Source of the DNA: Terriglobia bacterium
Lineage (GTDB): Bacteria; Acidobacteriota; Terriglobia; Acidiferrales; UBA7541
Direction of reading: 5' to 3'
Length of the DNA: 64,000 nucleotides
Assembly (NCBI GenBank): GCA_963695545.1
Contig: OY968796.1
Location: forward strand, 2,400,001-2,464,000
This document shows positions 2,974 to 32,513 of this stretch, piece by piece (the stretch's first letter is position 1; each line of letters begins with the position of its first letter). The translations under genes and the position numbers were made by a program. The notes beneath the pieces are model-generated. The model was not told the origin of the DNA, ran no database searches, and saw only the letters and a program-made list of their open reading frames with translations.

Positions 2974-3031
2974 TGTCCTTCTTAAACGCGCTACCAGGAT
3001 CGCGATTGGGTCGCTGTGGGCGACAGGCTTG

Positions 3032-4228
3032 TTATTGGCGCGGATCAGTATCGTCGTCTTCCCTGGCTGGCTGCAGGCGCATCTCTTGATAGAGGCTCCG
3101 AAGCTTTTCTTTCATTTCTTTATATTTTTGGTACTGTGCCAGTTCGTTCTCGGCGTCCGCTGTGCGTCCGTCCTGCCGGTATAGCGTACTCAGACGAAAG
3201 TGGGCCACCGCATTGGTGGGGTCCAGCTGGACGGCACGCTCCAGAAGCGGCTGGGCTTTTTGCGGCTGATTCATTGACATCAAGACCTTGGCCAGGCCGA
3301 GATTGGCTTCCGCGTCATCGGGCCGCAATTGCACGGCTCGCGTGTAACGTTCGTAAGCCTCATTTAGATCGTTTCTCCGGGCAGCGATATCGCCAAGCCT
3401 GGATTCCGCCTGCTCGTCGAGCGGATTGACCTCCAAGGCTGCCTTGTATTCGCTTTCGGCTTCTTCCTGCCCGTCTGGCACCGACGGACTGTTCAGCATT
3501 TCGGCAAGCTCAAAATGGAGTCCGGGAAGCTGAGGGTCAATCTTGAGAGCGGCTCGATAATTCGCGATCGCTTCAGCCGTATGCCCTTGCTTCGCCAGTT
3601 CGTGCGCCATCATTTGGTGCATTCGGGCGGAATTCGGAGCCACGATGGACAAGCTAAGCATGGCCTCGTCGGTGAGATCGGAATAGATTCGGTAAGCACT
3701 GTAGAGAATTGCTTCATCCGTTGGCTCCAGGCCACGGAGAACACTTATGGTGGCCGCGGCTTTGTCCAGGTCGCCCGTCGCGGAGTAGATTTCGATCAAC
3801 TCCATGCCGGTTTCGATGCGGACCTTCTCCTCCGGCACCTTTGGGAATGCCGTCTCCAAATCGGTGCGAGCCTTGTCGATGTCGCCCGTGCGCTTTTCGG
3901 CGATGCCCAGGAGAGCCTGAATCTTCCACAGGGTGGGCCGGAGTTTCAGGGCGGCGCGGAGCTGCGGAATCGCATCCGCATAAGCCCCCTGGAAAAACAG
4001 CAACGCGCCCAGGTTGCCGTGGGCGTCCACGTTATTGGGATCGAGGGCAAGGATGGCTCTGAATTCTGTGGCGGCCTGATCAGGCTTGTTCTCCTTCAGG
4101 TATTCCCCCGCCTGGCGGTTGTGCGATTCGATTTGCTGCTGACGGCCAGGAGCAGATTGGGAGAAACACGGAAGAGAGATGAGCAAGAGCGCGGCGCACA
4201 GCGAAACACCGACTTCCTTAGTTCTCAT
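3032..4228 (-). CDS. Secreted tetratricopeptide repeat protein
   Basis: Signal peptide followed by many TPR-type units (ALDPNNVDAHGNLG, AVQLDPTNAVAHFRLS). Confidence 0.88.
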   Translation of the reverse strand: MRTKEVGVSLCAALLLISLPCFSQSAPGRQQQIESHNRQAGEYLKENKPDQAATEFRAILALDPNNVDAHGNLGALLFFQGAYADAIPQLRAALKLRPTLWKIQALLGIAEKRTGDIDKARTDLETAFPKVPEEKVRIETGMELIEIYSATGDLDKAAATISVLRGLEPTDEAILYSAYRIYSDLTDEAMLSLSIVAPNSARMHQMMAHELAKQGHTAEAIANYRAALKIDPQLPGLHFELAEMLNSPSVPDGQEEAESEYKAALEVNPLDEQAESRLGDIAARRNDLNEAYERYTRAVQLRPDDAEANLGLAKVLMSMNQPQKAQPLLERAVQLDPTNAVAHFRLSTLYRQDGRTADAENELAQYQKYKEMKEKLRSLYQEMRLQPAREDDDTDPRQ

Positions 4229-18155: not shown

Positions 18156-18407
18156 TTAAGGCAGGTACCCGTCCGCCATCCATTTAGCGAATAGCTCAAT
18201 GCGAGATTGAGGCCAAGGACCTTCTCCTCTTGGTGGCGGGGGCGGCATTACGGAGCCCCCGATTGCCCGAATGCGGTCGTAAATCGCGGCTGCGTGGGCC
18301 TTCACGTCGTCATAACTCGCCAGGTTAAACGCCTTGCTCATGCCCTGAATGTCCCGGTCCGTAAAAAGCGGGCGAATGTCTGCTTGAAAACTCGTTGGTT
18401 TGGTCAT
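18156..18407 (-). CDS. Small hypothetical protein (83 aa)
   Basis: GAGGGG RBS; protein-like pattern SF..DIRPLF...MPP...W...I.LF..W...G. Confidence 0.75.
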   Translation of the reverse strand: MTKPTSFQADIRPLFTDRDIQGMSKAFNLASYDDVKAHAAAIYDRIRAIGGSVMPPPPPRGEGPWPQSRIELFAKWMADGYLP

Positions 18408-18826: not shown

Positions 18827-19543
18827 TTAGATTCGCGCCGCGACTTCCGTGCCAGCCGCTGCGAAAACCGAATTCACTTCCGACTCCGCAATCTCCACCA
18901 GGCAACGAACGACGTCGGGGTCAAACTGCGTTCCGCTCGACGCGAGCAGCCTGCGGATTCCTTCCTCAAAGGGAAGGCCTTGCCGGTAGGGCCGTGAGGA
19001 GACCATGGCGTCAAACGCGTCGATCACCGAGACGATGCGCGAGCCGATCGGTATCTCGCTCTTGGCCAGGCCCGCGGGGTAACCCGTTCCGTCAAAATTT
19101 TCGTGGTGATGCAACGTGAACAGGCTGGCCGTCTCGAATCCGGGAAGCATCCGCAGAATCGCCCAACTATATTCTGGATGTTTCTTGACGATCGCGTATT
19201 CTTCCTCGGTCAACCGCGACGGCTTGTTCAGAATCGCGTCGGGCACGCCGACCTTACCGACGTCGTGAAGCAGCGCGGCCACTTCCATGTCCGGCAGATC
19301 CTTTTGGTCGAAGCCCATGTCCTGAGCGACGCGCATGGCCCATTCCGCCAAGCGGGTGCTGTGCACTCCGGTGTTCAGATCCTTCAGATCAAGCAGCTGA
19401 TTGAAGGCGCACACAACCGAAGACCGCAGTTCGGAGACTTGATCTTCCAATCTCTTGATCCGCAACGTCCCCGGCGCCCACGATGGGACGATCGCGGGCG
19501 CGGGAGCCGGGGCGAAATCACGGGATAAGGCCATGGGGCTCAT
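18827..19543 (-). CDS. Stand-alone HD-GYP domain phosphodiesterase
   Basis: HSTRLA, LLHDVGK, HHHENFDGTGYP and DAFDAMVSSRPYR motifs; ATGA overlap with the S8 gene. Confidence 0.92.
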   Translation of the reverse strand: MSPMALSRDFAPAPAPAIVPSWAPGTLRIKRLEDQVSELRSSVVCAFNQLLDLKDLNTGVHSTRLAEWAMRVAQDMGFDQKDLPDMEVAALLHDVGKVGVPDAILNKPSRLTEEEYAIVKKHPEYSWAILRMLPGFETASLFTLHHHENFDGTGYPAGLAKSEIPIGSRIVSVIDAFDAMVSSRPYRQGLPFEEGIRRLLASSGTQFDPDVVRCLVEIAESEVNSVFAAAGTEVAARI

Positions 19544-20877
19544 CTGCCTTCTGAGGCCTCAAGCCACGCTTGTATGGCGGTGAAAATGTCCAAGCGTCCA
19601 TTGTTCAGGTTTGGCGTCAGCCGCACGCCGTGGGAAATAGCGGATGCCGCCTGTGATTGATTTACGGGAGCGCGCGCGTCGATCAGAAGCGCCGCCGAGC
19701 CGGTCACGAGCGGGCAGCTAAACGACGTACCGGACCCGCTGGCATACGTGCCGCCGGGATACGTGCTGACGATGTTTTCTCCCGGTGCGCCGATCCAGAC
19801 GTCGGGCGTGCCGTAGTTCGAGAAAGTTGAGATCGTGTCGGAGTCAGAGGTCGATGCGATGCCCATCACGGAATTCGTAAGCGCCGCCGGGTAGGCTGCG
19901 GCGTTTGTGGTGCTATTGCCGGCCGCGGCCACCAGCACGACGCCCGATTGCGTGGCATAGGAGACTGCCGAAGACAGCGCTTGAGAAGGAGTCGTGAAGT
20001 CGAAGCTCATGTTCACGGCGTTGGCGTTGTTCTGCACCGCGTAGTACAGCGCCGCGACGATGTTGGAAAGGTAGCCTTCGCCGTTCGCCGAGAACGCCTT
20101 GAGCGGCAGAATCTTGGCCGTTGGCGCGACCAGGTGAATCAATCCGGCTGTCATGGTGCCGTGGCCGAAATCAGAGTAGGGGCCTCCGTCGAGTACGGCG
20201 ACGGTCCGCTGATCCAGCACGGCGACGGTTCGCTGTTGCACAACGGCGGGCTGCTCCTGCTGTGAGCCGCTATCGCTGCTGGTGTCTTGCAGCGCAGGAA
20301 CATCGAGCCATTCGGATGCGCCGGGTTGGTTTCGCGTGAAATCGTATCCGGGCAGCAGCACGCGGTAAAGCGCCGGATGGTATGGATCGACGCCGGTGTC
20401 AATGTCCGCGACAATTACGCCGGTCCCGGAGACGTTGAATGCTTGTTGCGAATTCTGCAGCTGAATGATTTCCGTCGCGGGCTGATCCACGTAGCCTTCG
20501 GTAACCGTGCTTCCATAATAGTTGACCGGAACCGAATCGTAGAGACCCGAGGTATTGGTCGGCACCGGACCGACCGGCAATGGCAAGAGCTGATCAACCT
20601 CGACGCTCGTGATTCCCAGTAGGCGTTCCAACAGATTGAGCACGCCGCCGACGAGGTTGGCCAATAGATTTTTATTCGAGGTCACCAGAAATGTTTTGCC
20701 GATCGCGCCGTCGAGCGAACCCTGCACCTGACACCCGGCGGAAAGACAGAGGTTTAGGACTGAATCAAGGCCCTTCGTCGTCTGCACGATATACCGCTGT
20801 TGGGCCGACGCCGGTATTGCTCCGAGCAAAGAAAAAAAGACGACCAATATGATTAAGCGGCGCTTCAGTGTGGACAT
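19540..20877 (-). CDS. Secreted S8 (subtilisin-like) serine peptidase
   Basis: Signal peptide (KRRLIILVVFF...ASA); catalytic triad DIDTG / HGT / GTSFSCP; oxyanion AAAGN. Confidence 0.93.
   Translation of the reverse strand: MSTLKRRLIILVVFFSLLGAIPASAQQRYIVQTTKGLDSVLNLCLSAGCQVQGSLDGAIGKTFLVTSNKNLLANLVGGVLNLLERLLGITSVEVDQLLPLPVGPVPTNTSGLYDSVPVNYYGSTVTEGYVDQPATEIIQLQNSQQAFNVSGTGVIVADIDTGVDPYHPALYRVLLPGYDFTRNQPGASEWLDVPALQDTSSDSGSQQEQPAVVQQRTVAVLDQRTVAVLDGGPYSDFGHGTMTAGLIHLVAPTAKILPLKAFSANGEGYLSNIVAALYYAVQNNANAVNMSFDFTTPSQALSSAVSYATQSGVVLVAAAGNSTTNAAAYPAALTNSVMGIASTSDSDTISTFSNYGTPDVWIGAPGENIVSTYPGGTYASGSGTSFSCPLVTGSAALLIDARAPVNQSQAASAISHGVRLTPNLNNGRLDIFTAIQAWLEASEGR
20188..20235 (-). repeat. 24-bp tandem duplication encoding QRTVAVLD twice
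   Basis: cag cga acc gtc gcc gtg ctg gat / cag cgg acc gtc gcc gta ctc gac. Confidence 0.95.
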
Positions 20878-21024
20878 CACCGTTTCTCTTTTCTCCCTCA
20901 GTGGCCGACTGCCGGTCTCTTGCCGAGAGCCACCGAGCGAAGTGACAGTTTCGCGTACCCTCGCTCGGGCCAACAATGGTACAAGGCTCCCATCTGCGGA
21001 TGTTGCGGTTCTAGTACCTTTTTC

Positions 21025-21663
21025 CTACCGTTTCGTTGTTGCTCCATCCAGTGGCACCAGTATCCTGGTGTCCTCACCCACGTGGACGGAGAGGAGTATT
21101 CCTGCCTTAAATTCAAGTTCTAGCTGGAATTCGCCGAATCCGTTGGTCTCCACCTCGTGTCTCGACTCGTGTTGATCCTTGTCGTGTCCGGAAACTACAA
21201 ATACGCGGGCGCCTGCTACCGCCTTGGCGTGCTTGGATGAATCGAGCACCTGGCCGGCCACCCAGACGCGGCTCGAGCCCGGTATCGCCTCGATTCTGAA
21301 ATCAACAAATATCCGCCCCGAACGATAAAGGATCACTCGCGGCGAGTGGCTCGCTGAACGGAAGCCCATCGCGGTGGACCCGGCGAAACTGTCTAGAACG
21401 AGCTCCGCCATCACGGTGAGCGGCGAGCGAATCGTCGGCAATCCGCCGAGCGCGCCGACTCCTTTCACCGTACGCACTAGATCCTCCGGAGCCTGATGCT
21501 CCGCGGCTTGCGACGCCGTACGTGCCGTGCGAGTCCAGAAATCCAGTGTGACCCTGCATTCCTTACAACCTGACGCGAGGTGTCGTTCCGCAGCTTCCCG
21601 CTCTTCCTGACTGCTGCTTCCGCGCACATAGTCGATCCATTGCTCAGCCGCAAAATGCTTCAC
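21025..21663 (-). CDS. Soluble zinc-binding anti-sigma-like protein with C-terminal beta-sandwich
   Basis: H...W.DY...ERHLASGCKEC (zf-HC2-like); no transmembrane segment; C-domain GQVLD...VAGARV...TNGFGEF; GGAGG RBS. Confidence 0.7.
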   Translation of the reverse strand: MKHFAAEQWIDYVRGSSSQEEREAAERHLASGCKECRVTLDFWTRTARTASQAAEHQAPEDLVRTVKGVGALGGLPTIRSPLTVMAELVLDSFAGSTAMGFRSASHSPRVILYRSGRIFVDFRIEAIPGSSRVWVAGQVLDSSKHAKAVAGARVFVVSGHDKDQHESRHEVETNGFGEFQLELEFKAGILLSVHVGEDTRILVPLDGATTKR

Positions 21664-21784
21664 AGTTCTCGTCCTCCGCCCGGGGGGCCTAAATGAAGTG
21701 GGGCTGACGCTGCTGCCCCTACGCTAATAAGGGCGAGCAAGCGCCCGAAAAATATAGGCCGCTCAGAAATAGTAAGGCTTTTGT

Positions 21785-24649
21785 TTACAGTATCTTACCG
21801 ACAAGAATAAACGGGGCCCAAAAGCACGGGTGGGGATGATGCTCGCGAAGCTCGATCATGGCGTACTGTAAGGCCACGGGCTTGCTCTCGCCCGCGCGCA
21901 AACGTCCGTAGAAACTTTTCATGAAATCGGCCGCAGTTTGATCGTGAATATCCCACAGTGTCAGAAGCAGGGTCTGCGCGCCTGCGCAGAGCAGCCCGCG
22001 AACAAGGCCGAGCAATTCATCACCGGCGGCAACAGCGTTCAATCCCGTCGCGCAGCCACTGAGTGCCACGAGTTCCGCAGGAAGATGCAGTTGATAAAGG
22101 TCGTAGAGATTCAGTCGCGAGTCGCCTAGGCGAATCCCGGAAAACAGCGGACTGTCGTGGCGAAATTCGCCGTGTGTGGCGATGTGAATGTAGCGGCTGG
22201 AAAGTCCGCGCTCCTTCAGCACGGCCAGCGTCGCGGCCTGGCCGACAAAACATTCGACCGAAGGGAGCACGCCTGAAACTGCGCGGACTTCGTCGAGAAT
22301 CGCCGGGGCATTTTCATCGGGAACGCCGAGAACCAGGGATTTTGTCGCTGCGCATTGCGGCTTTCGTTGAGAGAGCGCAAATAAGCTCGCGCTCGGTGCG
22401 TACGATAACGTGAACGAATCCATCAGGTACGCTGTTCCGTCGTGCAGAGCGTGAAATGGAATGTAATGTAGCGGCCCGTGAGGAACGATGATCACGTGAG
22501 AGCCCTGTAGCTTGTCGCGGATCGGCGCGATCAGTTCGTCATGAAGCCGCCGCAGGTGCGAAAGCGTCGCTTCAAGAAGCGAACTCTCAAAACGATCGGC
22601 ATATTCCTTGCCCAACCGGAATTTTGAGATCTGAAACTGCAACATGCGCAGCAAGTGCACCACTCGCGCGCCGAGGGAGACGCCGACGATCTCGATCGCA
22701 TCTCCGTGCAGCATGCACGCGACGATTTGGTCGCCGATCATGAAGTATTCGAGCAGCGTAGCGTCCGGCGGCAAGGAAGCTCGAATTGTTTCCAACGTGA
22801 CGCCCTCGCCTGATTCGAGCGTGTTCTCCTCGCTGGCCTGCATCTCGCGAATCGCCGATAGAAATTCCTCTTCGCGCGATTTCGATTGTTCTTGAAGCTT
22901 CGCAATTCGATCCGGTGAGCTTTCTTCCGGACGCAGCTGCTCGATATCGATCCGGTGGTAATACCAATTCAATTCTTCGCGAAGTTCGCGAATTCTGCGC
23001 ACCAGATCGCTTTGCCCCGTGTTATTCCCGGCCAGAATCGGTCCGCGCTGCAGCATAAGATCGGTGAGGCTGCGCGACTTTGCCTCTTCGATGCAGGCGA
23101 AGGCTTCCTCGAATCGCAGAGGGTCGGAAGAACGTTCGAGGCAGATTTCCACCAGACCTTCGTACACTCCGAGTTTGTTCTTGAGAAAAGCGATCTTTAC
23201 TTCTTCTCCTCGCAGACCGCTGCGAAGCTTTTCGAGTGCGGCGCGCGCGTGCTGAAACGATTCGTAGGCCGCCTCGTTGTTTCCACCCGCGCGATGGATT
23301 TCTCCCATCAGCGACCAGGCCTGGAACGCAAGTGGCGCGGCATCGAGCGGCTGCAGCCGTTCGAGCGCGGATCGGCACTCGCCACCCGCGGCGCGCCAAT
23401 CTCCGCTCCGGAGCGAAATCCGGGCCAGTAGCAGATCACAAAGCACGGCCTTGCCGATCAAAGCCGATGTCGAGAAAAATGAAAGAGCCTTTTGGCAGAG
23501 CCGGCGCGCTTCAAATAACCGCCCTTGTTCGCAGAGCAGCAGAGCCTGGTACAAGTCGAGCAGCCAGGGCCATACTAGATTTTTCTCGGCCACAAACTCC
23601 TTTCGCGCCGCGGTGAACAGCTCGATCGCTCGAAAGGCCTGTCCTTGCTGCCCCAGCGCGATGGCTTCGTTCGCGAGGCATTTGGCCGCCTCGTAGCCGG
23701 TGCCAACCTCCAGAAATAGCCGATGCGCGTCGTGCGCCGTCTCGACGGCCTCGCTGCTGAGGTTCAATTCCAAGTAAATTTCCGATAGATCCATGTGGCA
23801 GAGCGCAAGCTGATAGGTGTCGCCGTTCTTGCGGCACGCTTCCCGCGCAAACAGCAGACCCTGGATCGCCCGGCTGTATTCGCCGCGCAGGTAATAGAGA
23901 TAGGCGATGTTGTAATCGGCCATAGCCGTGAGCAGCGGCATGCCGCGCTTTTCGCAGAATTCACGCGCGTTTTGATATGTTTCGAGCGCGCGCGGAAAAT
24001 CATTCAGCGCAATCAGGCAAACCGCCAGATTGCTCAACACCGCAGCGATGGCTTCGTGATCGTCCCCGTTGCGCAGAAATTCGTAGGCGCGTTCGTAGCA
24101 CGCCAGGCCTTCTTCTAGACGATCCTGGCGGTGAAAAATGTTCCCGACGTTTATTTCGAGGCGCGCAATGCGCCGCGCATCGCCCAGTGCCGTAAAAATA
24201 GATCGCGCGCGATCCGCTGCGGCCAAGGCTCGTTCGTATTCTCCGAGCAAAATCATCGGTTGCAGGGAGCCGCTCAGACTGATTCCGATCTCGCGTTGGT
24301 TTCCCGCCTTTTCGTAGCTTTGCAGCGCCTGCTCGTGCAGTTCGATGGCCTCGTGATTTTTCCCAAGCGTGAACACGGCGTTGGCCTTCGCGCGCAGGCT
24401 TCGTCCGAGTGATTCCGGATTGTCAAGTTCGCGGGCGATCATCACGGCCGCATCGGCCAGCACCAGCGCAAGGTCCGCATCGATGCGCACCTGCGCGTGC
24501 ACGGCTTCCGCGAGTTGCTCGACGACCTCCGCATTTAGCAACTGTTGATGGCTCGCGAGGAATTGTTTGCGCGCCGCCTCGCTCGGAAGCTCGCTTAATT
24601 CCCGCAGGAAAGTTTGGAGAGGAGCCGAAATGTCGTTGATCGCGATCAC
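21785..24649 (-). CDS. TPR-CHAT (caspase-like) protease
   Basis: Long TPR array, then a CHAT domain with IVPHGPLHYIPF, HIATHG (His), LSGCATG (Cys), TLWDI and WAPF. Confidence 0.93.
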   Translation of the reverse strand: MIAINDISAPLQTFLRELSELPSEAARKQFLASHQQLLNAEVVEQLAEAVHAQVRIDADLALVLADAAVMIARELDNPESLGRSLRAKANAVFTLGKNHEAIELHEQALQSYEKAGNQREIGISLSGSLQPMILLGEYERALAAADRARSIFTALGDARRIARLEINVGNIFHRQDRLEEGLACYERAYEFLRNGDDHEAIAAVLSNLAVCLIALNDFPRALETYQNAREFCEKRGMPLLTAMADYNIAYLYYLRGEYSRAIQGLLFAREACRKNGDTYQLALCHMDLSEIYLELNLSSEAVETAHDAHRLFLEVGTGYEAAKCLANEAIALGQQGQAFRAIELFTAARKEFVAEKNLVWPWLLDLYQALLLCEQGRLFEARRLCQKALSFFSTSALIGKAVLCDLLLARISLRSGDWRAAGGECRSALERLQPLDAAPLAFQAWSLMGEIHRAGGNNEAAYESFQHARAALEKLRSGLRGEEVKIAFLKNKLGVYEGLVEICLERSSDPLRFEEAFACIEEAKSRSLTDLMLQRGPILAGNNTGQSDLVRRIRELREELNWYYHRIDIEQLRPEESSPDRIAKLQEQSKSREEEFLSAIREMQASEENTLESGEGVTLETIRASLPPDATLLEYFMIGDQIVACMLHGDAIEIVGVSLGARVVHLLRMLQFQISKFRLGKEYADRFESSLLEATLSHLRRLHDELIAPIRDKLQGSHVIIVPHGPLHYIPFHALHDGTAYLMDSFTLSYAPSASLFALSQRKPQCAATKSLVLGVPDENAPAILDEVRAVSGVLPSVECFVGQAATLAVLKERGLSSRYIHIATHGEFRHDSPLFSGIRLGDSRLNLYDLYQLHLPAELVALSGCATGLNAVAAGDELLGLVRGLLCAGAQTLLLTLWDIHDQTAADFMKSFYGRLRAGESKPVALQYAMIELREHHPHPCFWAPFILVGKIL

Positions 24650-25242
24650 GCGTGTCCCTGTGATTCAAGTTCCTTTCGCAACCGCTTCAGGCAGCGCCCG
24701 CGTATGAATCCGATCGATCCAGTGGCAATTCCCAGGCGCGCCGCGACTTCCGCGTACGGAAGGGCCGGCTCGTGAAAGAAAAGCATCTCCACCAGGCGCG
24801 CGCACCGAGGAGGCAGACCGGCCACGGCGTCGCGAAGAATTTGTTCCTGCTCTGCTTCCCGCAGAATCTGTTCGGAATCAAGCGCCGGGTTTCCGCGCGC
24901 CGGCGGCTCTTCGCCCTCCACTAGGTGAATTGAGCGCGATTCCAGGCGCTTCCATTGAATGCATTTGTGCGCGGACACCTGCATCAGCCACTTGGGAAGA
25001 GCTTTTGGCTCGCGGAGCGACCCGAGTTCTGAAAGTAGTTCCACGCAAACCGATTGGAAAATATCCGCCGCCGCATCCGGCCCCAATTGAAATTTGATCG
25101 GGATGGAATAGATCAAATTCTTATACTTGTCGACGAGGGCTTCCCAGGCTTCCTGGTTTCCATCGAGACATTCTCGCACCAGCCGTGTATCCGTCCATGG
25201 CGCGGTGGAGGGCAGTGCAACGTCGGTGAGAGGTGCGGTCAT
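24646..25242 (-). CDS. ECF RNA polymerase sigma factor
   Basis: DTRLVRECLDGNQEAWEALVDKY (region 2), LPPRC...YAEVAARLGIATGSIGFIRGRCL (region 4); ATG 25242 overlaps the SBP stop. Confidence 0.92.
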   Translation of the reverse strand: MTAPLTDVALPSTAPWTDTRLVRECLDGNQEAWEALVDKYKNLIYSIPIKFQLGPDAAADIFQSVCVELLSELGSLREPKALPKWLMQVSAHKCIQWKRLESRSIHLVEGEEPPARGNPALDSEQILREAEQEQILRDAVAGLPPRCARLVEMLFFHEPALPYAEVAARLGIATGSIGFIRGRCLKRLRKELESQGHA

Positions 25243-27047
25243 CGTGCCCCGCCGGCGGTGTCCTTGCGAACGAACAATTCTTCCGCGTTCCAATCCGCAT
25301 AAGGCGCAAGAATCGCGGGCTCGAAATTCCCAACGCTGTTTTTCGCCGCCAGCAATATGTTCGGACTCACCAGGAAGACAACGGGGACGTTTTGAGCGAC
25401 CAACTCCTGCACCTGATCGTAAATCTTCTTGCGCTCCGCGTACTGCGGCGAAACTTCCTGCTTGCGCATCAGTTCGTCCACTTCTGCTTCCCACGGCGTG
25501 GCCGGTTTGGTCTCCCCGAGATGCCACACGTGCGTACTGCCGTCCGACGTCCACACGTTCATTTCCGCGGTCGGGTCCGTGTCGCCGGTTCCGAGCGAGA
25601 GCAGGCACGCCTCGTAATTGAAAGTATTGAACACGCGATCCACCATGGACCGAAACTCCATCGAAACGACGTCGACATGCATCCCGAGCTGCGAAAGATC
25701 GTGCTGAATCATCGTGGCCATCTGCAGCCGTTGTGCGTTCGAGGAACTGGTGAGGATCGAGAATTCCACGGGCTGGCCGGTGCCGTCCTGAAGCGTTCCA
25801 TCGCTCTTCCAGGAAAATCCCGCTGCGGCCAGAAGTTGCCGCGCCTGTTCGAGGGATCGCGCAGGACGCGGCAGGTTTTGATCCATCCATCTCTTGTTTC
25901 CCGGCGTCACGTTGCCCCAGATCGGCGTGGCGCGCCTCTCGAAAACAAGCCGCACCATTGCGTCGCGGTCCACCGCGAGGGAAACGGCCTGCCGGAAGCG
26001 CACATCGCTGAACCAAATTTTCTTCCGAGCGATATCCGCAGGCTGATCGGAGGAAGGATCGTTCAAATTGAAAAATAGAAAGTTGTATTCGAGGCCGGGC
26101 CCAAGATCGTAAATCCTGTATCCGCCCGCATCCTTTTTTCCGTCCAGCAGACCGTAATTTTGCGCGCTGAATCGACTGAGCACATCGGTTTCGCCCGATT
26201 GGAATCGCAATACCTCCGCGTCCTCGCTGGCCACAAACAGATATGCGATCTCGTCGAGATACGGCAGGCGCTTGCCCTGGCCGTCTGTCTTCCAGTAGTA
26301 GGGATTGCGTTCCAACACAACACGTTGCCCCGGCACGTACTCCTTCAGTCGAAATGGGCCGAGCCCTGCAATTTGATTCGGAGCCACTGTCGTGCCCCAC
26401 GCGTCGCCCAACTTCCCCGCCAGGTACGCGCTCTCCAGCAGATGTTTCGGCAGGATCGCCACGCTATCGAACAGCCGTTCGGCCGCCGCATACGGCTCCG
26501 CCATCGAAAACTCCACTTGATCTTCCGCGAGCTTTCGCACCGCGATCGGTTTGTCGCCAACGATCAGCAGATCGCGCTGCGGAGAATCCACCTTCTCATC
26601 CAGATACACTTGAAAACTGAACACCACGTCATCCGCGGTAAATGGATATCCGTCGGAGAATTTCACGCCATGACGAAGTTGCAGCACGTATCGCCGGCCG
26701 TCCGGCGATACCTTCCACGATGTCGCCAGCGCAGGTTCTGTGCCTTGGGATAACCGGTTGATGTGGATCAGGTCCGCCATCATCAATCCCAGGATTTCTT
26801 TCGAAGACCCATCCACCGCGAGAACCGGATTGAATGTTTTCGGCTCGGACCGCAACGCAAAAACCAAGCGCCCTCCGAACGTGCCTTCCGGAGCCGTTGA
26901 GCGAACCAATTCTTCGGACGTTGCGGAGTCCTGCGGGGTCGGTGACGCGGCGCGCACACCCGCCAGTGCCAGCGCAGCTGCCACCAACAGGAACAGAGAT
27001 GTTCTCTTCCGGGTGGAAATGTTCTCCCTGCGCGGCGATTTATTCAC
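25239..27047 (-). CDS. Peptide/nickel ABC transporter substrate-binding protein (family 5)
   Basis: EPKTFNP, PALATSW, VKFSDGYPFTADDVVFS, GLGPFRL and RNPYYW motifs; GTG 27047 overlaps the permease stop. Confidence 0.93.
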   Translation of the reverse strand: MNKSPRRENISTRKRTSLFLLVAAALALAGVRAASPTPQDSATSEELVRSTAPEGTFGGRLVFALRSEPKTFNPVLAVDGSSKEILGLMMADLIHINRLSQGTEPALATSWKVSPDGRRYVLQLRHGVKFSDGYPFTADDVVFSFQVYLDEKVDSPQRDLLIVGDKPIAVRKLAEDQVEFSMAEPYAAAERLFDSVAILPKHLLESAYLAGKLGDAWGTTVAPNQIAGLGPFRLKEYVPGQRVVLERNPYYWKTDGQGKRLPYLDEIAYLFVASEDAEVLRFQSGETDVLSRFSAQNYGLLDGKKDAGGYRIYDLGPGLEYNFLFFNLNDPSSDQPADIARKKIWFSDVRFRQAVSLAVDRDAMVRLVFERRATPIWGNVTPGNKRWMDQNLPRPARSLEQARQLLAAAGFSWKSDGTLQDGTGQPVEFSILTSSSNAQRLQMATMIQHDLSQLGMHVDVVSMEFRSMVDRVFNTFNYEACLLSLGTGDTDPTAEMNVWTSDGSTHVWHLGETKPATPWEAEVDELMRKQEVSPQYAERKKIYDQVQELVAQNVPVVFLVSPNILLAAKNSVGNFEPAILAPYADWNAEELFVRKDTAGGAR

Positions 27048-28075
27048 GACACAACTCCACCGGCACGAGCCGCCAACACGCTCGACACGCTGTTGTATGC
27101 GAGAAATACCGGCACCAGCACGAGAGCCGGCAAATACATCCACCATTCCGTCTGCAGCACGCGCACCTGCTGCAGGCTTGCCAGCAGATTGCCCAAACTC
27201 GGAGCGGGCTCGCCCACGCCCAGCCCGAGGAACGAGAGAAACAGTTCGGCAAGAATGAACTGAGGAACCAACAACGCTGCTTGCGTCCAGATCACCGGCA
27301 TGGCTTGCGGCAAAACGTGTCGCCGGAGCAGATATGCGTCCGACGCTCCGAATCCGCGCGCCGCGCTCACAAAGTCGCGTTCCTTCGCCGCCAGCGTGAT
27401 TCCGCGCACCAGTCGCGCCGGCCGCGCCCATCCCACAATTCCGATAACCGTGATGATCAACAGGAAAGCCTGCGCCGGACTCACGTGCAGCGGCAGCGTC
27501 GCGCGTACGGCAAACAGCAAAAATAGCCACGGCACGGCCATAAATAATTCTGTCCAGCGCATGAGCAAGGAATCCACCAATCCGCCCGCGTAGCCTGCGA
27601 GTCCGCCGATCACTAAGCCGAGCAAGAGTGAAACCCCCGCAGCCAGTAGTCCTGCATATAGCGAGAGCTGCGCTCCGAACACCATCCGCGAGAAAAGATC
27701 TCTTCCGAACTCGTCTGTGCCGGCAAGGAAAATGTGCGCGGGCGCGCTCGCCCCGAACAAATGGCGATCCGCGGAAAATATTCCCAACACACGATACTCA
27801 GGTCCGCGTACAAACAATCGGATCGGATAGGTGGCGGTTTTCACTTCCTCATATTCGTCCGGATTCGTCGGCGATTCTTCGGCGGCGTAAACGAATGGCC
27901 ACGCATGCAGCTTGCCGCGCCCATCGACCAGATGAATCCGCGTCGGCGCGCTGGCGGCGAAATCACGGTCTTGCTCGGCCGGATCGTACGGCGCAAAAAA
28001 TCCGGGCACGAGCAACGCGGCATGAACTGCCGCGAGAAAGATTAGAGATGCCACGAAGATACGATTGCTCCGCAC
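27044..28075 (-). CDS. Peptide ABC transporter permease, DppC/OppC-like
   Basis: GTDEFGRDLFSR, EAA-loop FVSAARGFGAS, LSFLGLG. Confidence 0.93.
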   Translation of the reverse strand: MRSNRIFVASLIFLAAVHAALLVPGFFAPYDPAEQDRDFAASAPTRIHLVDGRGKLHAWPFVYAAEESPTNPDEYEEVKTATYPIRLFVRGPEYRVLGIFSADRHLFGASAPAHIFLAGTDEFGRDLFSRMVFGAQLSLYAGLLAAGVSLLLGLVIGGLAGYAGGLVDSLLMRWTELFMAVPWLFLLFAVRATLPLHVSPAQAFLLIITVIGIVGWARPARLVRGITLAAKERDFVSAARGFGASDAYLLRRHVLPQAMPVIWTQAALLVPQFILAELFLSFLGLGVGEPAPSLGNLLASLQQVRVLQTEWWMYLPALVLVPVFLAYNSVSSVLAARAGGVVS

Positions 28076-28076
28076 G

Positions 28077-29039
28077 CTACTCCGTCCGAATCCGCGGATC
28101 GCTCCAGCAAAGAAGCGCATCCGCAACGAGGTTTCCGGCCACGAGCAGCACCGACGAAAACATGATTCCGCCGACCACGACGTTGAGGTCCCGCGAAAAC
28201 GCCGCTTCAAGCAAGAGCGGCCCCAGACCCGGCCAGCTCAGAATCACTTCCACCAGCATGGAGGCGCTCAGCAGTGACGCCAGCGAAAATCCGAACAGCG
28301 TCAGCAACGGGTTCGCAGCCGCCGGCAATGCGTGGCGGAACAACAGCCGCCGGCGCGAAATCCCATGAGCCTTTGCGGCGCGGAAGTACGGCGCGTGGAG
28401 CACTTCGACGATCGCCGCGCGAACGTGGCGGAACAGCACGGGCAACATGATGATCACCAGCGCGATCGTTGGAATGAGCAGGTGCACCGCGAGGTCCTGA
28501 AACTTTTTAATGGGACTTAGATCCGCAAAGTCGAGAGAAACCATTCCCCCGGTCGGCAACAAGCCTGTTCGCGCGGCAAATAAAAGCAGCGCCAGTGCCA
28601 GCAAAATATCCGGCACAACGAGCATTCCCGAGGAACACAAGCTGAGCAAATGGTCTGTCCACTTTCCTTCATGTGTCGCGGCCCAGATTCCCAACGCCAA
28701 TGCCAAAAACCAACTGACCAGCGTGGCCGTTACCGTGAGCAACAAAGTGTTTCGCACTCGCACCAGCAACAGCGGCGCGACGGGTGCGTTGTATGCGAAC
28801 GATTTCCCCATATCGCCATGCGCCACGCCCGCCAGCCACTCCGCGTACCGCGCAGGCAACGATCGATTCAATCCGTATTGCGACCGCAGCGCGGCCACGG
28901 TCTCCGCGCGAACCTCGGGCTGCAGTTGCATTTCGGAAAAGAAATCCCCGGGCGCGAGCTGCATCAATGCGAAGGAGATGAACGACACACCGAGCAGCAG
29001 AAAAACGCCGTGAAGGAGGCGCCGAGTGAGATATCGCAT
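28077..29039 (-). CDS. Peptide ABC transporter permease, DppB/OppB-like
   Basis: YLTRRLL, LAPGD, RHALP, VEVILSWPGLG and DPRIR motifs. Confidence 0.93.
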   Translation of the reverse strand: MRYLTRRLLHGVFLLLGVSFISFALMQLAPGDFFSEMQLQPEVRAETVAALRSQYGLNRSLPARYAEWLAGVAHGDMGKSFAYNAPVAPLLLVRVRNTLLLTVTATLVSWFLALALGIWAATHEGKWTDHLLSLCSSGMLVVPDILLALALLLFAARTGLLPTGGMVSLDFADLSPIKKFQDLAVHLLIPTIALVIIMLPVLFRHVRAAIVEVLHAPYFRAAKAHGISRRRLLFRHALPAAANPLLTLFGFSLASLLSASMLVEVILSWPGLGPLLLEAAFSRDLNVVVGGIMFSSVLLVAGNLVADALLCWSDPRIRTE

Positions 29040-30809
29040 CTACTCGACCTCCTTCGCGGTCAGCGCGCCGGTCAAGTTCGCTTGCGCTTCATCCTCGTGC
29101 TCGCCGACTTCCGCAAAGTTCCTGTCGAGGAGTGAATCGCCGCGGCTGGATCTCGCCACAATTTGACCGTCGCGCAGTACGGCGATTTCGTCTGCGACTC
29201 GCGCCGCCAGTTCAAGATCGTGTGTGATGAATAGATATGTAAGGCCACGGTTAGCCCGCAATTCGCGGAGCAGGTCGCTCAGCTGCGCCTGCAAGAGCCG
29301 ATCAAGGCCGGAAAATGCTTCATCGAAGATCATGAACTCCGGCTCGAGGATGAGCGCACGTGCGATCGCCAGCCGCTGTCGCTGCCCGCCGCTAAATTCC
29401 GCGGGCAGGCGATCTCCTTGCGAGCGACTCAGTCCAACTTGCTCCATCATCGCGAGCGCCCGCTCCCGCCGCTCCTCTTGCGTGCCGGCACTTTCGATCG
29501 TCAGTGGTTCGGAAACGGCTTGCCACGCGCGCATCCCCGGATTTATCGAGGAGACGGGATCTTGAAAAATCAGCTGGATGCGCCGACGGTGCCGACGAAG
29601 CGCAGCGTTTGGCATGCGAGTGAGATTTTCCCCAGCGAGCCATATCTCGCCGGCGTCGGGCCTGGTCAGCATCGCCAAGCAGCGGGCCAGAGTTGACTTC
29701 CCGGATCCCGATGGGCCCACGAGCCCCACAGCGCCGCCGCGCGCGACGCGTAGACTTAAATCGCGCAGCGCCGGCACGACCACGCGCTTTCGCGAAAACA
29801 GCTGACGCCGCGAATATAGCTTGTGAACGTTGCGCGCTTCGATCAAGGATTGCTCATCGATCGAACCGGCCGCGGAAAAACTTCCTGGCGCAAGATCCAC
29901 GCTGCGAGTGGAGCGGAAGTTGGAAAGCACACCACTTGCCGGATCGTCTCCGCGCCACAATCCCGACGCGAGCAATTCGCGCGTGTATGCGTGCATCGCC
30001 CACTTCGGAAGCTGTTGCCATTCGCCCTCTTCGACGATTCGCCCGTCGTGCATGACCAGAACTCTGCTCGCCAATCGCGCCAGGACTCGCGGATCATGGC
30101 TGATCAAGAGCAGCGCCATGCGAAAGCGATCTCGCAGTTGTGCAAGCAAATCGAGAATCTCCGCCTGCACGGCCCAATCGAGCGACGCTGTCGGTTCGTC
30201 CGCGACGACGATCGCGGGCTGGCATGCGAGAGCCTGCGCGATCAACACGCGTTGTCTTTGTCCTCCGCTCAATTGATGCGGATAGGCGTCAAAAAATCGC
30301 TCGTTTCCCGAAAGGCGCACCGCTTCCAATAACGATTGCGCCTGCTCGACGCATTTCTTTCCGCTCCATGATCGCTTGTGCGCACGGATCACTTCCGCCA
30401 CCTGTGTGCCAATACGCATCACGGGGTTGAGCGCCAGGTTCGGTTCCTGGAAGATCATCGAGATCTCGGCGCCGCGAATCTCGTCCATCTCTCGCTCGCT
30501 TAAGCCGATGAGTTCGCGATCTCGAATGCGAATGGATCCGCTCACGCGGCTCTTAACGGGAAGCACTTGGAGCAGGGCTAAAGCGATGGTCGTTTTCCCG
30601 CATCCCGACGCGCCCATCAGGCCGAGGCATTCCCCAGAGTTCACTTCGAAATTGATCTGGTCTATCGCGGTGTGGGGTGTGGCGCCTGCTGGCGAATAGG
30701 AGACGCTCAAATCACGAACGCGCAGCAGCGATCCCGCTGCGTGCGAGGCATCGGTCACGGCGACACGGTTGTGGCTTCCCAAGCCCATTTGCACAAGCCG
30801 GCGTTGCAC
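29040..30809 (-). CDS. Fused double-domain peptide ABC ATPase (start uncertain; GTG 30758 is an alternative)
   Basis: Two Walker A motifs (GASGCGKT, GPSGSGKS), two signature motifs (LSGGQRQR, FSGGQRQR), DEPT/DEAF, SHD/THD. Confidence 0.93.
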   Translation of the reverse strand: MQRRLVQMGLGSHNRVAVTDASHAAGSLLRVRDLSVSYSPAGATPHTAIDQINFEVNSGECLGLMGASGCGKTTIALALLQVLPVKSRVSGSIRIRDRELIGLSEREMDEIRGAEISMIFQEPNLALNPVMRIGTQVAEVIRAHKRSWSGKKCVEQAQSLLEAVRLSGNERFFDAYPHQLSGGQRQRVLIAQALACQPAIVVADEPTASLDWAVQAEILDLLAQLRDRFRMALLLISHDPRVLARLASRVLVMHDGRIVEEGEWQQLPKWAMHAYTRELLASGLWRGDDPASGVLSNFRSTRSVDLAPGSFSAAGSIDEQSLIEARNVHKLYSRRQLFSRKRVVVPALRDLSLRVARGGAVGLVGPSGSGKSTLARCLAMLTRPDAGEIWLAGENLTRMPNAALRRHRRRIQLIFQDPVSSINPGMRAWQAVSEPLTIESAGTQEERRERALAMMEQVGLSRSQGDRLPAEFSGGQRQRLAIARALILEPEFMIFDEAFSGLDRLLQAQLSDLLRELRANRGLTYLFITHDLELAARVADEIAVLRDGQIVARSSRGDSLLDRNFAEVGEHEDEAQANLTGALTAKEVE

Positions 30810-31004: not shown

Positions 31005-31718
31005 CTAGTTAGGGCCGTGACGCTGTGGGGATGCCACCGTTGCCTTTAACCCCTCCCGAGCGGCAGGCCGCGGGCCATCGGGAATTCGCCAAGCGGTGAC
31101 CACATAGCGACGCGGGGCGGAGCCGATGAAGTGAAATGGATAGCACGTGACGAGCGTGAGCGACTGCCGGCCTTGCGGGCGCAGGACCTCGATGTCGGTC
31201 GGGTCGACGATGGCGGTGGTCGCTACGCGATAGTGATATGTACCCCTCGGCGTTTCCACGCCGATTTCATCGCCCGGTCGCAGCGCTCCGAGGTTGCGAA
31301 AAAAAGTGTCGCGATGCCCGGCGAGCCCCATCGCGCCGGAGCCGTCCGGGAAGGAAGTTCCAGGAATGTGGCCGACGGCGCGACGCAACGTTGTTTCGTC
31401 ATCGCCTTCCAGAACTATTGCAGAGAGGCCGATCTCGGGGATCGTCAACTTGCCGAGTAACTCGTCCGGTTGCACCGCTTGCACCGCCGCGGCTCCGCGG
31501 CGTAACGCAGCGAGGCGACGCGCTTGCACGGCCTGAAAAATTAGCCTGTCTGCCGAGACGAAAAGGAACCAGCCGAGCCCCGCCACCGCGGCGACCCAGC
31601 ATAAATACTCGAGCCAGCGCAAAAAGTTATCCTGCCAGACGGAGGCATGCATCGGCGGAGCCGCGGCGATATCGCGGTCGGCCGATGCAAGCACGTGCAT
31701 GGAATCTCGCGTGGCCAT
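31005..31718 (-). CDS. Class D-like sortase
   Basis: N-terminal TM, VGHIPGT, AGHRDTFF (His), TLVTCYPF (Cys), PRRYVV (Arg); start uncertain. Confidence 0.92.
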   Translation of the reverse strand: MATRDSMHVLASADRDIAAAPPMHASVWQDNFLRWLEYLCWVAAVAGLGWFLFVSADRLIFQAVQARRLAALRRGAAAVQAVQPDELLGKLTIPEIGLSAIVLEGDDETTLRRAVGHIPGTSFPDGSGAMGLAGHRDTFFRNLGALRPGDEIGVETPRGTYHYRVATTAIVDPTDIEVLRPQGRQSLTLVTCYPFHFIGSAPRRYVVTAWRIPDGPRPAAREGLKATVASPQRHGPN

Positions 31719-31781
31719 GGCTTGAAGAGTGTCGCCGGGCGCCCCCAACAGCGCCGCCCGGCGACTCTCGGCGCGTCGTAC

Positions 31782-32513
31782 TTAAGCGCGCGCTCTGCGC
31801 CGAAGCACGAGTCCGACTGCCACGCACAGCAGTCCCGACAACCCAATTAACGGGAGCGAGCTGGCTGTTTGAGGCAATTGCGCCGAATTCGTGGTGGAGG
31901 TTGTAGGGTTGTCCGCAGGCGCCGGCGTTGCGGTGCTGTTGGCGTTGGTTTGCCCTGCGGATGTGTCTGGCGTCGTAGCGGGAGTCGAGCCAGTTTGAGG
32001 AGCCGTGGTCTGCGGCGCTGTGGTTTGAGGCGTCACCGCTGGCGTTGACTGACTCTGTGACGCAGGCTGATCAGATTGCGCTGCGGGCATCTCGCTCGCG
32101 TTGACTTGCGCCATTTGCGCAGGTTGCGAATTCGGATAGATAAATTCCTGTCCGAAATTGTCGCCCGGGTAGAACCACTCGGCGATGGCCGGTGGCTGGT
32201 CCGCCGGGCGTTCCGCAAACCGGATCACTGAGCCGTCGTTCGCGTCGAGCCGGAAATCGGGAACCGCGAGAATGGTCGTGATCAGGCCACTTTGGTCATG
32301 GTTAAAAATCTGCACGATATCTCGGTTGGATGGGCCGTCGGCAAGTTTGAAAACGTAGGTGCCGGGCCCGAGAACCGCTCCGGGAACCTGCACGGAATTT
32401 GGAAAAGTCAAAACCGTCAACTTATCCCATTCGCCGGCGCGAGCTGTCTGATTCAGCGCGCAAAAAACCATGGCCACCGAAAACAGAAGCGCCAGCGTTC
32501 GAATTGCCTTCAT
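31782..32513 (-). CDS. Secreted sortase substrate with LPQTA sorting signal
   Basis: Signal peptide, globular domain, P/T/S/Q-rich linker, then LPQTA, a hydrophobic helix and RRRARA. Confidence 0.88.
   Translation of the reverse strand: MKAIRTLALLFSVAMVFCALNQTARAGEWDKLTVLTFPNSVQVPGAVLGPGTYVFKLADGPSNRDIVQIFNHDQSGLITTILAVPDFRLDANDGSVIRFAERPADQPPAIAEWFYPGDNFGQEFIYPNSQPAQMAQVNASEMPAAQSDQPASQSQSTPAVTPQTTAPQTTAPQTGSTPATTPDTSAGQTNANSTATPAPADNPTTSTTNSAQLPQTASSLPLIGLSGLLCVAVGLVLRRRARA

Follow-up and report, generated by a model that had tools for sequence, protein, structure and literature searches.

Comparative sequence analysis of a Terriglobia gene cluster that may encode a peptide-controlled proteolytic switch on an ECF sigma factor

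A 64,000-nucleotide stretch of the genome of a Terriglobia bacterium (GenBank assembly GCA_963695545.1, contig OY968796.1, positions 2,400,001 to 2,464,000; hereafter the window) includes nine genes at positions 18827–30809 for an ABC importer, a sigma factor of the extracytoplasmic function (ECF) type, a TPR-CHAT caspase-like protease, a soluble zinc anti-sigma-like protein, a secreted subtilase (S8) and an HD-GYP protein. A tandem peptide repeat is embedded in the subtilase, and its sequence co-varies with one segment of the TPR region of the protease. A peptide-controlled proteolytic switch acting on the ECF sigma factor is the best explanation for this arrangement, and is considered fairly probable. 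The system encoded by the cluster is real, conserved and coherent, and a candidate ligand and binding site can be named for it.

All nine open reading frames (ORFs) are on the minus strand, and each is open with one terminal stop. The gene for a fused double ABC ATPase of OppD/F type (29040–30809; the true start may lie a few codons downstream) is followed with a gap of 0 bp by that for permease B (28077–29039), and then with a gap of 1 bp by that for permease C (27044–28075). Overlaps of 4 bp join permease C to a family 5 solute-binding protein (SBP; 25239–27047), the SBP to the ECF sigma factor (24646–25242), the ECF to the TPR-CHAT protease (21785–24649), and S8 (19540–20877) to HD-GYP (18827–19543). 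The spacing is 121 bp between the TPR-CHAT and anti-sigma (21025–21663) genes and 147 bp between the anti-sigma and S8 genes. Assignments were made using Pfam and NCBIfam, with locus linkage as further evidence for the permeases and a comparison with an ECF from an ECF54-type neighbourhood, its kin, for the sigma factor. Pfam detected two ABC_tran stretches in the ATPase, BPD_transp_1 twice in the permeases, SBP_bac_5 (283 bits), sigma-70 regions 2 and 4 in the ECF, CHAT (PF12770, 203 bits) together with TPR in the protease, Peptidase_S8 (118 bits) and HD_5 (138 bits). The TPR-CHAT, S8 and anti-sigma genes are single-copy, and there is one CHAT domain in the genome. The original prediction, which was made from the sequence of the cluster, described nine co-oriented genes with these junctions and an intact CHAT His/Cys pair and S8 triad, and both descriptions hold: H826 (22172–22174) and C866 (22052–22054) are present in the protease, and D160, H239 and S385 in the subtilase. 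Two features that it did not include are the tandem repeat in S8 (20188–20235) and a promoter-like conserved motif (21727–21758).

The subtilase has a prodomain, the catalytic residues D160, H239, N321 and S385, and a hydrophobic, signal-peptide-like N-terminus from which export is predicted; the N-termini of related S8 proteins are likewise hydrophobic. An insert of ~45 residues between the catalytic Asp and His ends in the repeat, two copies of QRTVAVLD (20212–20235 and 20188–20211, minus strand) that differ in four codons, all synonymously. An exported peptide had been predicted earlier without being named, and this repeat is the candidate for it. Two to five copies are found in 86 of 89 parsed S8 proteins, and the last two adjacent copies are identical in 79 of those 86. 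In 688 codon positions, the last two copies differ synonymously at 380 and non-synonymously at 7; thus, copy identity is kept by selection and not by recent slippage. Units diverge by a mean of 2.1 residues between proteins but by 0.08 within one protein. In the wider S8 family, 134 of 150 representatives could be parsed and 109 have an exact repeat of at least 5 residues, with 44 heptamer types among 81 distant representatives.

In 230 of 234 copies, L, V or I stands two positions before the core of the repeat, and the residue after the core varies (D, E, N, G, S or H). This constant flank and variable following residue suggest that the peptide is cut after hydrophobic residues to give a product of 7–8 residues with the core QRTVAVL; an Asp-specific cut after each unit was set aside on the same grounds. 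An AlphaFold model of S8, built from an alignment, has a pro-subtilisin fold (mean pLDDT 88, pTM 0.90), in which the insert is the least confident part (pLDDT 41–64). The most extended array was seen in the subtilase of locus L164 (G053:C9), where ten copies of QSTV[SA]LLN, nine of them in tandem, give a polyprotein-like appearance.

Three lines of sequence evidence point to a partner in trans that reads the S8 peptide. One is the sharing of peptides between paralogues. Nine accessory S8 proteins, 59–61% identical to the main S8, form their own clade (support 97/95) and carry the main peptide of their host in 9/9 cases, a claim for which tree support is the whole of the evidence. Seven of these have the type that is most frequent and carry little information, whereas those of G010 (QQSAAVLD) and G031 (QSSAAILD) are informative because their peptide is a derived type. 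Another comes from genomes with several receptors: the TPR-CHATs and the peptide types both number two in G026, where there is a single SBP, and three in G033, and the type QSTAAILE adjoins a divergent TPR-CHAT clade in both G006 and G026.

The remaining line is co-variation, for which 85 loci with TPR-CHAT, SBP, ECF, anti-sigma and peptide were used and changes were mapped on a tree by parsimony. Residues 131–300 of the TPR region (23750–24259, minus strand) were one of eight regions fixed beforehand. The 19 branches on which the peptide changes hold 31.9% of the changes in TPR 131–300, as compared with 17.8% of all changes, and the other seven regions range from 15.4 to 19.9% (SBP 17.9%, ECF 18.0%, anti-sigma 15.4%, CHAT 15.9%). 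In 5000 matched random branch sets the excess was never reached, and it also holds on a tree built without TPR 131–300 (22 branches). The strongest co-varying columns (166, 242, 206, 203, 200, 126 and 163) are beside an Asn ladder conserved across the 85 loci (N167 in 85, N207 in 84, N247 in 85 and D287 in 85). A 'groove-face' column set (58–61% versus 29–36%) was picked after the top columns and is descriptive only. The earlier idea that a peptide acts on the TPR protein thus gains a specific location, and TPR 131–300 is the putative peptide-binding groove. Structure prediction of a complex between TPR-CHAT and the repeat-bearing S8 segment gave a score of 0.01, which was counted neither for nor against.

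Conservation of the cluster was assessed in 80 stretches kept from 243 related ones, mostly from Acidiferrales or Terriglobia in the case of the closest loci; the loci are kin and not independent. In the 64 loci with at least 6.5 kb upstream, the ECF gene is linked in 64, and each of the importer genes (SBP, permeases B and C, and ATPase) in 62. Downstream, the 65 loci with enough sequence include anti-sigma in 64, S8 in 64 and HD-GYP in 63. Metagenome loci anchored on S8 (n = 27, at least 7 kb upstream) have TPR-CHAT in 23, permease C in 22 and SBP in 20, and the rest include accessory S8. Because the 80 kept loci are kin, it is more telling that the linkage of importer parts persists in more distant genomes, where the genes stand in four other orders (L038, L041, L042 and L185). 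Coupling of the importer had been regarded as the distinctive part of the locus, with neighbourhood conservation as the proposed check, and it survives this check.

Of 61 sampled relatives, 17 have TPR-CHAT, one of them as a weak match of 26%, and 16 have S8. A close SBP orthologue occurs in 15 of the 61, and all 15 also carry TPR-CHAT and S8. The SBP represents a dedicated subfamily, and its best solved relative is the oligopeptide-binding protein AppA. The system is patchy, with TPR-CHAT in 0/5 genomes of the same genus and S8 in 3/301 genomes in a phylum-wide search. Plasmid searches turned up only distant TPR-CHATs and subtilases; of four ECF matches from these searches that were followed up, two were without such context and one had a short S8 only. 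A sister SBP clade (~40% identical) was seen in L180, L186, L187, L188 and L189, mostly with permeases. Its neighbours include an HD-GAF-GGDEF protein (L180, L186, L188 and L189) and a different, longer subtilase (L186, L187 and L188), and these loci possibly represent a second protease-importer-c-di-GMP circuit without TPR-CHAT.

Of 92 complete TPR-CHATs, 89 have the His-Cys dyad H826/C866 intact. A broken dyad was found in L034, L040 and the second cassette of G026, where no ECF or anti-sigma gene adjoins the protease gene although a peptide-bearing S8 is kept; two of these belong to one clade, and the three cases therefore represent about two events. In a wider count, from which 15 proteins were set aside by a flank and completeness filter, intact dyad and ECF occur together in 102 proteins with an adjacent anti-sigma and in 2 with an anti-sigma further off, and of those with neither ECF nor anti-sigma 2 have a broken and 2 an intact dyad. 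The functional link between CHAT, anti-sigma and ECF that had been proposed is strengthened by this joint loss in 3/3 cases. The pseudo-proteases (L034:10409–13279, L040:10082–13009 and L036:3941–6784; dyad R/W or E/C), two of which keep HD-GYP, are possibly peptide sensors that act by binding alone.

The anti-sigma-like protein has no Pfam match, and its NCBIfam 'antisigma' match is weak (E 6e-4). Nonetheless, its prediction as a soluble zinc protein agrees with the alignment, as the likely zinc ligands H3, H28, C33 and C36 are invariant in 86/86 homologues and no segment has transmembrane strength. The ZAS zinc motif is His-x(~24)-His-x3-Cys-x2-Cys; here, the His-to-Cys spacing is x4. In a look-alike cluster, 27% of members have zf-HC2. 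A linker motif, DS-x7-G-x-R-S, in which D91, G100 and R102 are each invariant in 86/86, is a candidate CHAT cut or docking site by analogy with Csx30 (PMC10028731). Elsewhere, L181:5531–11534 combines TPR-CHAT, a small partner, S8 with a degenerate repeat, a histidine kinase and a LuxR-type response regulator, i.e. a two-component output in place of the ECF. At L191:3044–9771 (G033), three anti-sigma paralogues and S8 are clustered without ECF or TPR-CHAT, and one paralogue lies behind the promoter motif described below.

A bipartite motif, CCTATATTT-N16-CCCTTAT (21727–21758, minus strand), is located 63 bp before the anti-sigma start. Of 92 regions, 71 have the motif after the TPR-CHAT stop, 64 of them with a spacer of 16 bases, and it is a candidate target promoter of the ECF. 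In this genome the motif is unique: one site scores 37.3 bits and the next best 16.8, and matches below the 37.3-bit site, sought as a wider regulon, are no commoner than in a reversed control. An exact pattern has 18 matches in 8 of the 17 TPR-CHAT genomes and 2 in the other 44, as compared with 6 across all 61 for its reversed control. The pattern was derived from the anti-sigma sites, which account for seven of the 18 matches. The other 11 include one before an unlinked peptide-bearing S8, one before an anti-sigma paralogue and two before secreted proteins, and at least one is intragenic and likely due to chance. A second copy was found in 19 related loci upstream of the ABC genes, before a gene for a 144-residue secreted protein. 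This conserved protein, for which no Pfam family was found, lies behind the candidate promoter at L052:~2980–3450 and in 18 similar loci; its homologue in this genome (54%) is elsewhere (C1:145960–146358) and without the motif. Upstream of S8, the conserved motif GTAC[CT]AT (20974–20982, minus strand), present in 78 of 84 regions, may be a second promoter or regulator site. A scan for sigma-70 sites and terminators gave matches at chance level.

In the favoured explanation, the subtilase would be exported and would cut its own loop, probably after the hydrophobic flanks, to free a peptide of 7–8 residues with the core QRTVAVL. The dedicated ABC importer would carry this peptide into the cytoplasm, where it would bind the concave face of TPR residues ~120–300 and set the activity of CHAT. 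The protease would then cut the soluble zinc anti-sigma, probably in the linker at ~89–103, and so free the ECF, which would read CCTATATTT-N16-CCCTTAT and drive expression of the anti-sigma, the subtilase and HD-GYP. These products would provide negative feedback, more signal and lower c-di-GMP, respectively. HD-GYP is a stand-alone protein, probably a c-di-GMP phosphodiesterase, and is the likely output; its C-terminus (18827–18900, minus strand) has a conserved VFAAAGT-like tail that could be a docking or cleavage site. Activation of CHAT by the peptide is mildly favoured over inhibition, because the promoter would then close a positive loop.

Several observations weigh against this explanation. 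Its steps from release of the peptide to the direction of the switch are all predicted from sequence. The promoter motif is absent before the ABC operon in this genome. L070 has no importer in ~10 kb upstream, the SBP is missing in L085, L193 and L210, and the permeases and ATPase are missing in L111; G055 carries S8 and TPR-CHATs without a close orthologue of the SBP. The best NCBIfam matches of the SBP are Opp4A (143 bits) and NikA (122 bits), all below cut-offs and with sugar binders close behind; family matches therefore leave peptide, metal and sugar all possible, and the ligand class cannot be fixed from them. No co-variation with the peptide is seen for the SBP; this would suit a loose carrier and ties the SBP to the peptide no further. 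The co-variation draws on ~19–22 peptide changes among related genomes, and it fits binding of the free peptide and docking on the intact loop alike, so that it cannot separate the two. Intact-dyad TPR-CHATs in L231 and L046 have no ECF or anti-sigma nearby. Finally, cutting the loop would nick the catalytic domain of S8.

Docking on the intact loop is the basis of an alternative in which the TPR groove reads the repeat on intact or unexported subtilase and reports stalled export or a mislocalised precursor, while the importer, a co-regulated target, retrieves the peptides that the protease produces. This accounts equally for the TPR co-variation and for the genome-wide matching of paralogues, and it agrees with an SBP that shows no co-variation. 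Moreover, the importer may be an ECF target because of the second promoter copy upstream of the ABC genes in the 19 related loci. However, S8 N-termini are hydrophobic and the receptor resides in the cytoplasm, arrays that reach 10 copies and have cleavage-like flanks resemble a precursor, and the dedicated SBP subfamily co-occurs with the system in 15/15 genomes, and this alternative is considered unlikely. The same parts and peptide may instead monitor the periplasm or outer membrane of the cell itself, through retention or loss of the peptide, or sense lysis of kin, and the peptide may hold the protease off such that its loss is the trigger. The host group has two membranes, so that a peptide freed by cutting in the periplasm would encounter the SBP immediately; the direction of the switch is also not fixed by the present tests. 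Hence, the loop could just as well serve to report on the periplasm of the same cell, and the label 'quorum-like' given in the original prediction should be read with this in mind. Nevertheless, a private sensor needs no peptide diversity, whereas selection for cell-to-cell specificity predicts what is seen here, namely many peptide types that are specific to lineages and several pairs of peptide and receptor in one genome. Self-sensing as the whole account is thus held to be rather improbable.

The repeat could also be a cis element of the subtilase, such as an auto-inhibitory bait or a folding or metal loop, with TPR-CHAT and ECF answering another signal and the importer being nutritional. 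The loop adjoins the catalytic His, its sequence is well conserved, and the repeat core ends in hydrophobic residues, which suit a subtilisin site. Such a role is very unlikely, as copy number ranges from 1 to 10, paralogues of 59–61% identity share the peptide of their host, a TPR segment of another protein tracks the peptide, and the importer is linked through rearrangements. In the remaining alternative, the peptide-TPR step is retained but CHAT has a target other than the anti-sigma: the protease would cut the ECF, HD-GYP or itself, or act by binding alone. A non-proteolytic output does exist, since S8 with its peptide is kept beside the catalytically dead copies, as is HD-GYP, with its conserved C-terminal tail, in two of the three cases. 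Yet the dyad and the ECF and anti-sigma genes are lost together in all three cases, as against 104 proteins with intact dyad, ECF and linked anti-sigma, and the anti-sigma linker motif is invariant; a different target is therefore given hardly any weight. The peptide-controlled switch, with the anti-sigma as the candidate substrate, remains the preferred explanation.

Genes on either side of the cluster were also inspected. The region at 31005–32513 (minus strand) encodes a class D-like sortase (Pfam Sortase, 105 bits) and, in this two-membrane host, a secreted protein whose C-terminus comprises an LPQTA motif, a hydrophobic helix and a basic tail. Neither the sortase nor its substrate is taken as part of the circuit, as they are present in 0/80 kept loci. 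Downstream of the cluster, an 83-residue ORF (18156–18407, minus strand) has no Pfam or NCBIfam match.

The locus names a ligand (a synthetic 7–8-mer), a binding segment (TPR 131–300), a candidate substrate and a promoter, and each step can therefore be tested in vitro or in a laboratory host. If the proposal is correct, the acidobacteria, an abundant but barely studied soil group, have a diversified peptide signalling that feeds into c-di-GMP, and orthogonal peptide-protease pairs could serve as inducible proteases. TPR-CHAT proteases are described as widespread but little known outside CRISPR systems (PMC11506125). A full-text literature search that covered few subscription journals found nothing on a subtilase-internal peptide repeat, a peptide-controlled TPR-CHAT or this operon. 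PMC8195603 and two preprints describe other caspase-linked systems, and CATASP, considered as a peptide system, is an unrelated CATRA-associated small protein.

The input side resembles the RRNPPA systems of Bacillota (Rap-Phr, NprR, PlcR and AimR). These (PMC3601992, PMC11343458) include an exported precursor, extracellular proteases and re-import by oligopeptide permease, with cytoplasmic TPR receptors in which a conserved Asn anchors the peptide, and the pheromones are tandemly duplicated. The TPRs and Asn ladder of the protease studied here, with adjoining columns that co-vary with the peptide, may reflect a similar mode of recognition. In contrast, the putative precursor is a loop in the catalytic domain of a subtilase and not the product of a small propeptide gene, a caspase-like protease serves as output, the operon includes its own dedicated importer, and the host is an acidobacterium. 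The N-terminal helix-turn-helix or Rap-type output of RRNPPA receptors was not found, the output domain here being the C-terminal CHAT. No RRNPPA receptor is among the 18 solved relatives of TPR-CHAT or its NCBIfam matches, and no separate propeptide ORF was identified in the junctions around the TPR-CHAT receptor.

The output side resembles the type III-E Csx29/Csx30/CASP-sigma module, which consists of a TPR-CHAT protease, a sigma-binding partner and an ECF-like sigma factor with target motifs in its own locus (PMC10028731). The cluster has a TPR-CHAT protease, assigned as such by a CHAT domain with the His-Cys dyad, together with a putative sigma-binding partner and an ECF with a candidate motif in its own locus. 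It differs in the predicted peptide trigger and in the anti-sigma, which is a zinc protein of 212 residues. Cas7-11 was not found among the ORFs of 12000–38000, a crude genome scan gave no CRISPR-like array, and the Csx29 family model NF041237 scores 41 bits against a cut-off of 300.

The gene neighbourhood is shared with ECF54, which the excerpts consulted place with a carboxypeptidase-regulatory-like neighbour, subtilase and TPR-CHAT and catalogue without a mechanism (PMC7826278, PMC8999054). Within the same excerpts ECF54 is listed as 100% Actinobacteria, with no anti-sigma factor and the promoter GTATCAG/CTCC (PMC7826278). Here, the carboxypeptidase-regulatory-like protein, subtilase and TPR-CHAT are likewise present, but the host belongs to Terriglobia, the regulatory-like neighbour also has an N-terminal zinc motif, a zinc anti-sigma-like gene is present, and the candidate promoter is CCTATATTT/CCCTTAT; the importer, peptide and HD-GYP of this cluster are not described in those excerpts. 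In an ECF54-type locus of Nonomuraea, the ECF is 35% identical to that studied here and no importer match was found within 7 kb. The +1 protein of that locus matches the anti-sigma profile weakly over its C-terminal part (12.9 bits; best of 500 shuffles 3.0), and pairwise BLASTP between the anti-sigma and this neighbour gave nothing. In the DdvS/DdvA system of Myxococcus xanthus, an ECF is under the control of a zinc anti-sigma domain joined to a TPR-CHAT with a His-Cys dyad (PMC11506125). DdvA is a single membrane protein with a periplasmic TPR-CHAT, whereas the cluster encodes separate soluble proteins and a predicted peptide importer spans the membrane.

Thus, the input side is like RRNPPA and the output side like the type III-E protease-sigma module, and the system falls outside both families by their own membership features. 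It appears to be peptide-import signalling in kind and is possibly a class of its own, in which repeats in the catalytic domain of their own processing protease would be released, re-imported and read by a TPR-caspase receptor that frees an ECF by cleavage, with dozens of specificity groups. The proposal of a separate class is put a little short of an even chance. If it is correct, TPR-CHAT proteases gain a defined small ligand outside CRISPR, two-membrane soil bacteria gain an Opp-type quorum language, and the cluster introduces a family of peptide-switched proteases.

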